A stretch of DNA of 64,000 bases from Escherichia coli (lineage in GTDB: Bacteria > Pseudomonadota > Gammaproteobacteria > Enterobacterales > Enterobacteriaceae): assembly GCF_036507355.1 (NCBI RefSeq), contig NZ_AP027877.1; one strand, written 5' to 3'. This document shows, piece after piece, positions 43,475 to 46,659 of this stretch (its first letter is position 1; every line of letters starts with the position of its first letter). A model generated the notes under the pieces. That model saw only the letters and a list, made by a program, of their open reading frames with translations. It was not told where the DNA came from and searched no databases. The translations under genes were made by a program, and so were the position numbers.

Positions 43475-43711
43475 TTAACGCAGCGCCCACCACTCGCGCA
43501 GACAGGCTTTTCCTTCCGGGCAGCTTTTACAACTGCCGGAGAGGCAGCCGTCAGGTTCTTCCTGAATCCGCACGGCTTTGCCCATACTTTCCAGTTGTTG
43601 CAGCATGGCGTTAATCATTGGCTGTGGAGTGTTCAATGTCTGGCTTATCTGGGCCGCTTCCATACGGCCCCGTAACGCCAGCAAATCACGCACCTGAATA
43701 AGTGAAGCCAT
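43475..43711 (-). CDS. feoC: FeoC, small winged-helix protein of the Feo system
   Basis: 78 aa from [23 protein letters not shown]...; four-Cys cluster. Confidence 0.9.
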
Positions 43712-46032
43712 TAATGGCAATCACCGGTGGTGCTGGCTGCGCAGCAACTACTTACCGACTTGCGGGTTGCCAGCAGTTCGATATCCACCCGGCTACGCGC
43801 GCGGCGCAGCAGACCGATAACCACGATGTTAAACAGGATAACCGCCAGAATGCACACCAGGCTGTAAGTTGGATGCTGGCTGTAGCTGGCGACCTGATAG
43901 AACAATGTTGCCAGTGAGTAAGCGATATTCAGCCCCCACAGGATGGAGAAGCCCATCCAGCCACGGCTTGATTCACGGGCGATGGCTCCCATCACCGAGA
44001 TACATGGTACATACAGCAGGACGAAAATCAGGTAGCTGTATGCGGCAGCTGCGCTACCGAATTTCTGATCCATCACGCCCATCGCCCCGGTACCCATTTC
44101 ACCGTCGCCTTTGCTAGCCTCAATGGGGTTCATCAGTACGCTAAGGCTGAAGGTGTCTTTCAGGCTCTGCCAGGTTTCATCTACCGCACTGAACAGCTCT
44201 TCACCGAGGTTAAATTCCGCCGGATTGAACTCTTCGTCCTGAATATTTTCTGCGGTGTAGAGGGTGTTGAGCGTACCCACCACCACTTCTTTCGCCATTG
44301 CGCCCGTAAACAGGCCAACCGTTGCCTGCCAGTTATCTTCATGCACGCCAATCGGCTTGAAGACCGGGGTGATCACCCGGCTGACGGAAGCCAGCGCCGA
44401 GTCGTTGATGTTATCGACGATTTTCCCGCTCAACGAGAAGCTGTTGAAAGCGCTCAGGAAAATGCTGACAATGATAATCACTTTACCAGCACGCAGAACG
44501 AAGCCTTTCAGACGCTGCCAGGTCTGGATAATCAGGCTTTTAACGTGTGGTACATGGTAGACCGGCAGCTCCATGACAAACGGCGTCGCTTCACCGCGCA
44601 TGATGGTGTACTTGAGCATCAGGCCAGTCAGCACCGCCATCACGATACCGAGCATATACAGCGAGAAGACCGCCAGCGCACCGTTCTGCCCGAAGAAGGC
44701 AGCCGCGAATACTGCGAAGATAGCCAGACGCGCGCCGCAGGACATAAACGGTGCCATCATGATGGTCATCAGACGTTCACGCGGTGCATCAAGTGTACGT
44801 GCACCCATTACCGACGGTACGTTACAACCGAAACCGACGATCAGCGGCACAAAGGATTTCCCCGGCAAGCCCAGCGCCTGCATCAGGCGGTCCATCACAA
44901 ACGCTGCACGCGCCATATAGCCGGAGTCCTCAAGGAAGGAGAGGAACAGGTACATCATGCCGATCTGCGGCACCAGTGGCAGCACGGTGTTAATACCGCC
45001 ACCCAAGCCCTGGGCGAGGAAGATAGTCAGCCAGTCCGGGAAGTGGAGCGTGTAGCCAATCCATTGAATACCATGCACAAATAGCGCCACGGAGCCGACG
45101 TCAAACAGCGGCTGTAACGCCCCGCCGATGTTGATAGCCAGCAGGAACATCAGGTACATCACAAAGAGGAAAATCGGCAGACCGAGGAAACGGTTGAGCA
45201 CGATTTTATCTACCGCAGTGGTGAAACGGCTGGGTTCTGCCGTCAGGGTGTTGCTTACCACATCACAGATGGCAGCAATGCACTGGTAACGCGCATCGGC
45301 AATGTGCAGCGCCGGATCGTCCATCTCATTACGCAGACGGGCGAGGGCGGCATCAAGATGCTGCGACGCTTCACCGGCGTAGGCGCGGCTGTAGATATCG
45401 CCTTCCAGCATTTGCAGGCCCAGCCAGCGACGTTGTTTCAGCGGGATGTCGGAAGGCATCACTTTTGCCAGTGAATCTGCTTCGTTGAGCAGCGGCTGTG
45501 CGTAATGCACCAGTTCCACATTCTCGTTAGCTTTATAGCGATCAATCGCCAGCTTGAGCGCTTCAATACCGCGACCACGGGTTGAAACCAGCGGGATCAC
45601 CGGGCAGCCAAGACGCGCCGACAGAGCATCAATTTCAATACGAATATTTTGCTTCTCGGCAATGTCGAGCATGTTCAGTGCCACGATGCAGGGAATGCCG
45701 AGTTCCAGCAGTTGTAGCGTCAGGTACAGGTTACGCTCAAGGTTAGACGCATCCACCACGTTAATCAGCAGGTCGGCGTCGCCACTCAAAATGTAGTGAC
45801 AGGCGATTTGCTCATCGAGCGAGGTCTGCGATGAGATGGTGGTCAGAGAATAGGTGCCGGGCAGGTCCACCAGCGTGACCTGATGATCGGTGGTGGAGAA
45901 TTGCCCTTCTTTACGTTCGACGGTAACGCCAGCCCAGTTACCTACACGCTGACGTGCGCCAGTGAGCTGGTTAAATAAGGTTGTCTTGCCAGAATTAGGA
46001 TTACCAATTAAGCCTATGGTTAATTTTTTCAT
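43711..46032 (-). CDS. feoB: Ferrous iron transporter FeoB (G-protein domain plus polytopic permease)
   Basis: 773 aa from [25 protein letters not shown]... Confidence 0.95.
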
Positions 46033-46048
46033 TGTTGTTATCACCGTA

Positions 46049-46276
46049 TTAACAGGAAACCGCTTCCACTTCTAATAAGGCCAGATCTTTTTTGCGTAAT
46101 ACCAGGCTCACACGACGGGTTTCGATATGAATGGGGTCGCCGAGTGGAGCGACGCGCACCACATTAAAAGAGGAGCCAGGTAACATGCCAAGAGAAAGCA
46201 GTTTTTGGCGATATGCCGGGCTGATTTCACGGGAAAAGCCAGTGATTTTCCACGCAGTATCTGGAGTGTATTGCAT
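46049..46276 (-). CDS. feoA: FeoA (SH3-like)
   Basis: 75-aa ORF. Confidence 0.9.
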
Positions 46277-46386
46277 AGGTGCCTACTTGTTTCTCATTAA
46301 CTGGATAACTACCTCATGGGGCGTTTGACAGCGACATGAGACCAGATGATTTGCCAACGAAGGAGAGATTAAATAATCAACAGTAC

Positions 46387-46405
46387 AATGATAATGAGAA
46401 TGGTT
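46387..46405. promoter_or_regulatory. Putative Fur box in the feoA leader (aatgataatgagaatggtt)
   Basis: GATAATGA-type 19-mer about 110 bp upstream of feoA. Confidence 0.5.
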
Positions 46406-46465
46406 TCTATCAGCAATACTTAAAATGTGTGCGAATGTTGGTTTGAATAATAATCTGACTCAATG

Positions 46466-46479
46466 TTGATGTGGCTCAA
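46466..46479. promoter_or_regulatory. Putative FNR site (TTGAT-gtgg-CTCAA) upstream of feoA
   Basis: 9 of 10 match to TTGAT-N4-ATCAA. Confidence 0.4.
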
Positions 46480-46659
46480 GGTTATATCGCAGCGAAAATA
46501 TAATTCGAATAGCGAATTACCAAGACTGGCTAATGTTTAATTAAGGTTTCAGTTGTTAATGAAGTGATAAATATTAACGGAATATATTGTGAGTTTGGCT
46601 GTGGAATAAATATGCCGGAGATATTCTCCGGCACTTTTATGTCAGACAAGGCGTTCGTT

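Follow-up and report, generated by a model that had tools for sequence, protein, structure and literature searches.

The stretch of E. coli DNA analysed here (64,000 nucleotides of contig NZ_AP027877.1, hereafter the window) carries on its minus strand the feoABC operon for ferrous-iron uptake in its usual, much-studied E. coli form, and the candidate regulator sites upstream of feoA correspond to Fur and FNR sites already published. Very probably the operon is canonical throughout, with a single sigma-70 promoter that is repressed by Fur and activated by FNR from -90.5 together with ArcA-P/OmpR, and with feoC translation able to restart at the feoB/feoC overlap. That Fur, FNR and ArcA control feo is textbook knowledge, as is the operon itself, and confirmation adds nothing new; the one small new point is the origin of the feoB/feoC overlap in an 11-base deletion. 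Gene identities, in vivo occupancy by FNR and Fur, the transcription start and the conservation of the sites and of their spacing come from the present analysis or from published data on identical sequence. The calls of an earlier sequence-only reading of this DNA proved accurate.

As that reading had proposed, the three genes are feoA, feoB and feoC, which is borne out by Pfam matches for all three proteins and by genome identity within E. coli: 5,422 of 5,426 complete E. coli genomes contain an annotated feoABC that is 95-99% identical in DNA to the window locus. feoA (46276..46049, minus strand; ATG at 46276, stop TAA 46051..46049) encodes 75 amino acids, in agreement with the open reading frame list and the homologous RefSeq locus, and its product matches PF04023 with 44.6 bits. 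feoB (46032..43711, minus strand; ATG at 46032, stop TAA 43713..43711) encodes 773 amino acids with an N-terminal G-protein domain and a membrane part, matching FeoB_N (PF02421, 217 bits), Gate (PF07670, 136 bits), FeoB_C (PF07664, 74 bits) and FeoB_Cyto (PF17910, 37 bits). A longer, GTG-started feoB reading frame from 46044 does not correspond to the annotated start; the K-12 annotation gives 773 amino acids. The feoB ATG is preceded at a distance of 7 nt by the ribosome-binding motif GGTGAT, for which pairing with the 16S rRNA 3' end was calculated at -9.0 kcal/mol. feoC (43711..43475, minus strand; ATG 43711..43709) encodes 78 amino acids; its product matches FeoC (PF09012, 49.6 bits), contains the Cys motif (15 residues) and matches PDB entries 1xn7 (E. 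coli YhgG, E 6e-49) and 4awx. The small feoA lies directly 5' and feoC directly 3' of feoB on the same strand. Since it is almost identical to the E. coli system whose function has been characterised, the window operon would mediate Fe2+ uptake.

The K-12 operon (b3408-b3410) shares with the window its gene order, its flanks (yhgF upstream and rpnA downstream) and the TAATG overlap; feoA-feoB DNA is 98.4% identical between the two, and the FNR 14-mer, the -35 and -10 elements and the Fur operator are identical. Since neither regulator site differs between the two, K-12 data transfer directly to the window. The upstream region of the window departs from K-12 at a few bases, one of which (T to C) falls within the ArcA/OmpR site. 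The best match of the window feoABC in the complete-genome set (99.4%) is to strains that include O157:H7, not to K-12. The same three genes are found in ST131-type E. coli (for example NZ_CP173438.1), E. albertii, Salmonella, Citrobacter and Klebsiella, and the representatives of the various genera retain both the FNR and the Fur site at the spacing seen in the window.

Transcription would proceed from one sigma-70 promoter (TTGCTG, 17 nt, TATCAT; all on the minus strand) with a start at about 46382. The -35 element TTGCTG (46411..46416) matches the consensus at 3/6 positions, with its TTG conserved, and lies 17 nt 5' of the -10 element TATCAT (46388..46393), which matches at 5/6 positions, is nearly invariant across the 78 loci compared and ends 5 nt before the mapped start. 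The start (46382, minus strand; U00096.2 3538079) leaves a 5' untranslated region of 106 nt and was derived from a single table, in which the position of the ArcA site (-191..-171) is counted from the "mapped TSS" (Park 2013), by conversion to window coordinates. With the start at 46382, Fur covers -32..+2 and FNR is centred at -90.5; the mapped start, which the sequence-only reading had named as the result that might prove incompatible with its two sites, is compatible with both, putting Fur on the core promoter and FNR upstream of it. The start-site supplement of Kim 2012 contains no feoA entry. A generic promoter scan of the feo strand upstream of feoA returned nothing, the promoter being missed because its -35 element matches at only 3/6 positions. 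No significant fold was found in the 106-nt leader (z-score 0.32), and no Rfam family matched at the feo locus. A terminator after yhgF (tex; 46612..46634, minus strand; -19.7 kcal/mol, z-score -5.8) separates yhgF from the feo promoter, and operon transcription would end 3' of feoC at a strong Rho-independent terminator (43418..43453, minus strand), in which a T run comes after a stem that has a 1-nt bulge (-29.3 kcal/mol, z-score -4.6).

The Fur operator (46414..46381, minus strand) is delimited by a Fur ChIP-exo peak, by consensus scans and by conservation (0.91-0.96). The peak in question, P104 (U00096.2 3538047-3538080), was detected in iron-replete cells only (Gao 2023) and maps onto the window at 46414..46381, where the K-12 sequence is identical; the block 46416..46386 is likewise base-for-base identical to K-12. 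A feoA-lacZ fusion is repressed by Fur (Beauchene 2015). feo is therefore a direct Fur target, with its operator over the core promoter and published iron-dependent occupancy on identical sequence. When iron is plentiful, Fe2+-Fur bound to a hexamer array across -32..+2 (46414..46381) would block RNA polymerase. The 19-mer at 46387-46405, which the sequence-only reading had called a Fur box, was correctly located, inside the ChIP-exo peak, but its register was not the best available: it matches the Fur consensus GATAATGATAATCATTATC at 10/19 positions on either strand, whereas shifting it by 3 bp in either direction (to 46384-46402 or 46390-46408) raises the match to 13/19, a level reached by 25 of 127,964 window positions. 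Between 46378 and 46402 the consensus scores reach a maximum at 3-bp intervals, a periodicity expected of a Fur hexamer array, and the operator matches the ChIP-exo consensus at 10/13 positions. As a positive control, the ryhB promoter, which Fur is known to target, gave the best match to the Fur consensus in the window. A stronger match than the operator's own (15/19) lies inside feoB at 44467-44485. It was dismissed as a further operator: K-12 does not share its exact sequence, other genera do not conserve it, no ChIP-exo peak is listed there, and the stretch simply codes for the hydrophobic run VIIIVS, the match appearing to be a by-product of these codons.

The FNR site (46479..46466) reads TTGAGCCACATCAA on the minus strand and TTGATGTGGCTCAA on the plus strand (46466..46479), matches TTGAT-N4-ATCAA at 9/10 positions and has its centre at -90.5 relative to the mapped start. 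It is base-for-base identical to K-12, where the same 14-mer is the motif match under an FNR ChIP-seq peak, with a motif score of 14.6 bits and a positive signal (Myers 2013 supplement); the FNR-like site proposed from the letters alone is thus the very sequence listed for K-12. The half-site that had then been described as imperfect is so in the sense of a 9/10 match, but TTGAG is itself the conserved form. With a site of the TTGAT-N4-ATCAA type and published in vivo occupancy on the identical 14-mer, feo is a direct FNR target, and its activation by FNR is masked by Fur (Myers 2013).

Further upstream lies the ArcA site (46553..46573, minus strand; -191..-171), which in K-12 reads TTGTTAATGAAATGATAAATA on the opposite strand (Park 2013 supplement) and falls within a conserved block at 46575..46531; the window differs from K-12 in this ArcA/OmpR site by one base (T to C). 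A predicted OmpR motif falls in the DNA of the ArcA site, and in gel shifts OmpR shifted only the larger of two fragments, the one with the predicted motif (Gerken 2020). In the absence of oxygen, FNR bound to TTGAG-N4-ATCAA at -90.5, presumably always on one face of the helix with respect to the core promoter, would activate from upstream, jointly with ArcA-P and/or OmpR at -191..-171. This geometry of activation is one that we infer. FNR-activated promoters mostly carry their site at -41.5; for a single activating site, -90.5 is an uncommon position. At class II FNR promoters such as narG and dmsA, a site of the TTGAT-N4-ATCAA type at -41.5 is bound by FNR anaerobically. The feo promoter differs from these in having its FNR site centred at -90.5 and not near -41.5, in a class I-like position, combined with a Fur operator on the core promoter and an ArcA/OmpR site further upstream. 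Compared with the class I faces at -61.5/-71.5/-82.5/-92.5, the feo centre lies 2 bp from -92.5, the start site being taken from a single table.

Two other explanations of the sites were weighed, and 78 Enterobacteriaceae feo upstream regions were compared. As consensus matches, the sites are modest: the window contains seven 9/10 FNR matches where 2.44 are expected by chance, 1.3% of window positions equal or beat the Fur register at 46387-46405, and the better Fur match within feoB seems to be a codon by-product. All of this would suit the view that at least one of the two sites resembles its consensus by chance and has no regulatory role. That view is effectively refuted by published in vivo occupancy on exactly both sequences and by the strong conservation islands that both sites form, with spacing fixed across genera. 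The chance rate of 2.44 FNR matches per 64 kb predicts about 0.013 in a 330-bp upstream region. Conservation in the 78 loci is 0.92 for the FNR half-sites and 0.59 for the FNR spacer, and 0.91 for the Fur/promoter block and 0.96 for the 19-mer 46387-46405, against 0.54 for the whole upstream region; it is the binding data together with this cross-genus conservation that make the Fur and FNR sites secure. The distance from FNR site to -10 element is 85-86 bp in 75 of the 78 loci, although leader length ranges from 44 to 246 nt. This constancy ties FNR to the mapped promoter, and it bears on the second alternative, that FNR acts from -41.5 at an unmapped promoter with a start near 46431, the start at 46382 then being only that of the Fur-controlled promoter. 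The usual position of FNR at -41.5 speaks for such an arrangement, as do the two promoters proposed for the feo locus of Yersinia pestis. It is nevertheless improbable, as there is no -10-like hexamer at the place needed (46443..46438 reads AACCAA, in a moderately conserved stretch), the FNR-to-TATCAT distance is held while the flanking distances are free to vary, and a single feoA promoter is given by Myers 2013. The Y. pestis feoABC promoter resembles that of E. coli in having a Fur site over the promoter and putative FNR and ArcA motifs. At the DNA level, however, no similarity between the two promoters can be detected, and mutating fnr or arcA has no effect in Y. pestis. The strong constraint on the FNR site and on its 85-86 bp distance to the promoter supports real activation by FNR from an unusually distant position.

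At the junction of feoB and feoC, the minus strand reads ...GAT TGC CAT TAA TGG CTT..., with TAATG at 43713..43709 and base 43711 common to stop and start. The 1-nt overlap noted in the sequence-only reading is therefore real (stop TAA 43713..43711, ATG 43711..43709), and RefSeq annotates an identical overlap in K-12 and in strain Res13. Termination-reinitiation is classically associated with a start codon that overlaps the stop before it, and TAATG at feoB/feoC has the form of such a coupled pair. A ribosome that ends feoB could restart on feoC, whose start lies on the final base of the feoB stop (UAAUG); the GGUGAU motif 8 nt upstream of feoC would aid restart, and FeoC would be made together with its partner FeoB. 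This motif, GGTGAT (43720..43725, minus strand) in the 3' end of feoB, is the likely ribosome-binding site of feoC in the overlap allele. We infer that the overlap truly couples translation, and the "tight coupling" that had been read from it is a reasonable supposition.

The overlap arises from an 11-base deletion that is absent from about 15% of E. coli genomes and from nearly all related genera. The overlap allele is found in about 85% of complete E. coli genomes, including K-12, O157:H7 and CFT073, whereas the remainder (approximately 831 of 5,425), including O25b:H4-ST131 strains, carry the spacer allele, which is the ancestral one. This spacer begins with a ribosome-binding site of the TAAGGAG type, and the motif upstream of it has GGC, not GGT; pairing with the 16S rRNA 3' end was calculated at -9.9 kcal/mol for GGTGAT of the overlap allele and -5.8 for GGCGAT of the spacer allele. 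A spacer of 8-13 nt without overlap is present in ST131-type E. coli, E. albertii, Salmonella, Citrobacter and Klebsiella, and it is kept with its ribosome-binding site in 73 of 75 related loci. The feoB/feoC overlap is thus a derived, polymorphic state, neither a fixed property of the operon nor a general feature of Feo systems, and its absence from these related loci and from some E. coli shows that it is dispensable for function. The spacer allele was also seen to lie on a locally divergent, recombination-like segment of feoC.

These observations invite the reading that the overlap is a neutral by-product of the 11-nt deletion, with feoC translated independently from its own ribosome-binding site and no meaningful coupling. 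Besides the derived and polymorphic nature of the overlap, FeoC of ST131-type E. coli is 97% identical to that of the window, so that both alleles are evidently functional, and the strongly pairing, suitably spaced GGUGAU could drive independent initiation. Such neutrality is possible but rather unlikely, given the termination-reinitiation layout itself and the position of the ribosome-binding motif within the feoB coding sequence, held unfolded by translating ribosomes. An independent lineage (L051) has moreover gained the same overlap, with a GGAG-type motif at the same place, which suggests selection for continued feoC translation. Possible, too, but rather unlikely is the proposal that the two E. 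coli junction alleles set lineage-specific FeoC-to-FeoB ratios and hence FeoB stability or activity. No description of the junction polymorphism was found in the searchable literature. What seems to be a design feature of the operon is a recent polymorphic deletion, and the two alleles could provide a naturally occurring test of coupled translation and of FeoC dosage in E. coli.

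Three genes lie in a row on the minus strand of 43475-46480, as read from the sequence and the ORF list: feoA (46276..46049, 75 amino acids; Pfam FeoA), feoB (46032..43711, 773 amino acids; Pfam FeoB_N, FeoB_Cyto, Gate, and FeoB_C), and feoC (43711..43475, 78 amino acids; Pfam FeoC). The Pfam matches for all three proteins were far over the cut-offs, and FeoC matched the solved E. coli YhgG structure 1xn7 with an E value of 6e-49 (for FeoC function, see PMC8749426). A longer feoB ORF in the ORF list, with a GTG at 46044, does not have the annotated start. Of 5,426 complete E. 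coli genomes, 5,422 contain the 3.6-kb region, with 95-99% identity and with annotation as feoA, feoB, and feoC between yhgF (tex) and rpnA. The top match was 99.4% identical and included O157:H7 strains, whereas K-12 is 98.4% identical across feoA-feoB. The operon ends in a strong terminator (43453..43418, minus; -29.3 kcal/mol) and is insulated by a second one between yhgF and the feo promoter (46634..46612, minus). The feoABC locus and its regulator sites are already known; the observation made in the sequence-only reading is confirmed and its interpretation supported.

Several other features were seen around the locus and in the window. The yhgF stop codon and the yhgF terminator are separated by a REP-like palindromic element (46655-46720, minus; GCCTACGG...CGTAGGGC, then GGCGTTCACGCCGCATC). 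The gene that follows feoC, rpnA, is complete in K-12 and in the window (42394..43272); in E. coli strain 98889 (L083, 3738-4112) the annotation gives it as a truncated pseudogene. An Rfam match to the ES036 (CssrF) sRNA was found at 22862-22904 (plus; 43.6 bits versus a gathering score of 37.6).

Park et al. place the ArcA site at -191..-171 relative to a mapped transcription start, which puts that start at 3538079, corresponding to 46382 in the window. It is preceded by the -10 element TATCAT (46393..46388, minus), with the -35 element TTGCTG (46416..46411, minus) 17 nt farther upstream. The resulting leader is 106 nt long, and no significant fold of it was found (z-score of 0.32). This start is compatible with the proposed regulator sites, with Fur covering -32..+2 and the FNR site centered at -90.5. 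Farther upstream, the published ArcA site (46573..46553, minus) spans the OmpR motif that Gerken et al. (2020) predicted; in their gel shifts, OmpR shifted only the larger fragment, containing the predicted motif, and not the smaller one. The ArcA/OmpR DNA reads ATCACTTCATT in the window and ATCATTTCATT in K-12; because the C form is shared by strain Res13 and by many other genera, it may be K-12 that has the variant. Downstream of this site, a conserved block (CTGAAACCTTAATTAAACATTA, 46531-46552, minus) has a conservation of 0.6-0.8 in most columns across genera.

Fur occupancy of the core promoter is documented by ChIP-exo peak P104 of Gao et al. (2023; PMC10164565), which spans 3538047-3538080 upstream of feoA and appears only in iron-replete cells. 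With a U00096.2 to U00096.3 offset here of 1,978, anchored on the ArcA site, the peak maps to 46414..46381, and the -35 to -10/Fur block is the same as in K-12 MG1655. A Fur-box-like 19-mer proposed at 46387-46405 falls wholly within this peak, so the region holds, but the register is not optimal: it scores 10/19 against the Fur consensus versus 13/19 when shifted by 3 bp either way (46384-46402 and 46390-46408), and 46395-46409 agrees with 10 of the 13 positions of the ChIP-exo consensus TGAnAATnATTcTCA. As a positive control, the best Fur-consensus match of the window (1349-1369, plus; GACAATAATAATCATTCTC; 16/19) lies directly upstream of the gene for the sRNA RyhB, a known Fur target (1400-1464, plus; Rfam RF00057, 83 bits). 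A match inside feoB (44467-44485, GACAATGATAATCACTTTA; 15/19, and 12/14 to the 7-1-7 form) outscores the operator at the promoter. This match was rejected as an operator, being not identical in K-12, unconserved in other genera, and without a listed ChIP-exo peak; it encodes VIIIVS and is probably a by-product of the codons.

The FNR site TTGAGCCACATCAA (46479..46466, minus) matches the consensus at 9 of 10 positions, a bare match that is weak given seven such matches in the window versus 2.44 expected. However, the 14-mer is the same as in K-12 MG1655, with the few upstream differences falling elsewhere, and exactly TTGAGCCACATCAA is listed by Myers et al. (2013; PMC3688515) at U00096.2 3537982 (14.6 bits, assigned to feoA, ChIP-bound), with a deconvolved FNR peak at 3537996. 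These authors reported that FNR activates feoABC and that Fur masks this activation in iron-replete medium. The site noted from sequence therefore lies under an FNR ChIP signal, and TTGAG, the half-site described as imperfect, is itself the conserved form among 78 upstream sequences.

These sequences came from a single FeoA scan of species-representative genomes, which gave 80 Enterobacteriaceae loci; 330 nt upstream of feoA were aligned for 78 sequences, including the window. Mean conservation was 0.54 for the whole region, 0.92 for the FNR half-sites, 0.59 for their 4-nt spacer, 0.91 for the promoter/Fur block (46416-46387), and 0.96 for the 19-mer. In 75 of 78 sequences the FNR site lies 85-86 bp from the -10 element, whereas the interval between the -10 element and the ATG varies from 44 to 246 nt and, with one exception, that between the ArcA-site column and the FNR site varies from 39 to 131 nt. 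Such fixed spacing between variable flanks argues that FNR acts on the mapped promoter from a fixed helical face. Cedecea davisae and C. neteri (L070 and L080) keep the Fur/-10 block and have no FNR site at the conserved position, which suggests that FNR control of feo was lost or rewired in Cedecea.

Fe2+-Fur occludes the core promoter, as its occupancy and position show, and Beauchene (2015) reported that Fur represses a feoA-lacZ fusion. Anaerobically, FNR would activate from -90.5, with ArcA-P and/or OmpR further upstream. This step joins documented occupancy to a deduced geometry, and the distal position is its least certain part because most FNR activation is from -41.5. A second promoter could place the FNR site at -41.5, but no -10-like element exists at the required place.

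The feoB/feoC junction reads GAT TGC CAT TAA TGG CTT, and direct reading bears out the proposed common base at 43711 (stop TAA, 43713..43711; start ATG, 43711..43709). Among the 75 related loci whose junction could be read, 73, including E. albertii, E. whittamii, Salmonella, Citrobacter, and Klebsiella, have the feoC ATG 8-13 nt past the feoB stop, after a spacer that starts with a TAAGGAG-type ribosome-binding site. The TAATG overlap occurs only in L015 (Escherichia sp.) and L051, an unrelated Enterobacteriaceae genome that acquired it independently and has GGGAGAT at the position of GGUGAU. Within E. coli, the overlap allele matched without gaps in 4,594 complete genomes, CFT073 and ABU 83972 among them, whereas 831 of 5,425 need an 11-nt insertion, including O25b:H4-ST131 strains. 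In strain 98889, the junction is CAC TAA GGACACGACA ATG, with feoB and feoC annotated as separate (polymorphism at window 43700-43725, minus; L083 3237-3247; also comparison loci L003, L005, L015, and L051). The spacer in 73 of 75 relatives, together with the polymorphism in E. coli, indicates that the 1-nt overlap is a derived 11-nt deletion.

Where the spacer allele reads GGC, the overlap allele reads GGT; the resulting GGUGAU, 8 nt upstream of the feoC ATG, is a stronger ribosome-binding motif, pairing with the 16S rRNA 3' end at -9.9 kcal/mol versus -5.8 with GGC. Over feoB, except for its last ~15 nt, identity between the spacer allele and the window is 95-99.5%; it falls to about 85-88% across the junction, feoC, and the adjacent downstream sequence, a drop that suggests a recombination mosaic. 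No account of this junction polymorphism turned up in a literature search, and we regard the polymorphism as a minor new observation. Because the overlap is derived and polymorphic, and the FeoC proteins of the two alleles are the same at all but 2 of 78 residues, translational coupling at UAAUG would be plausible but unnecessary for function.
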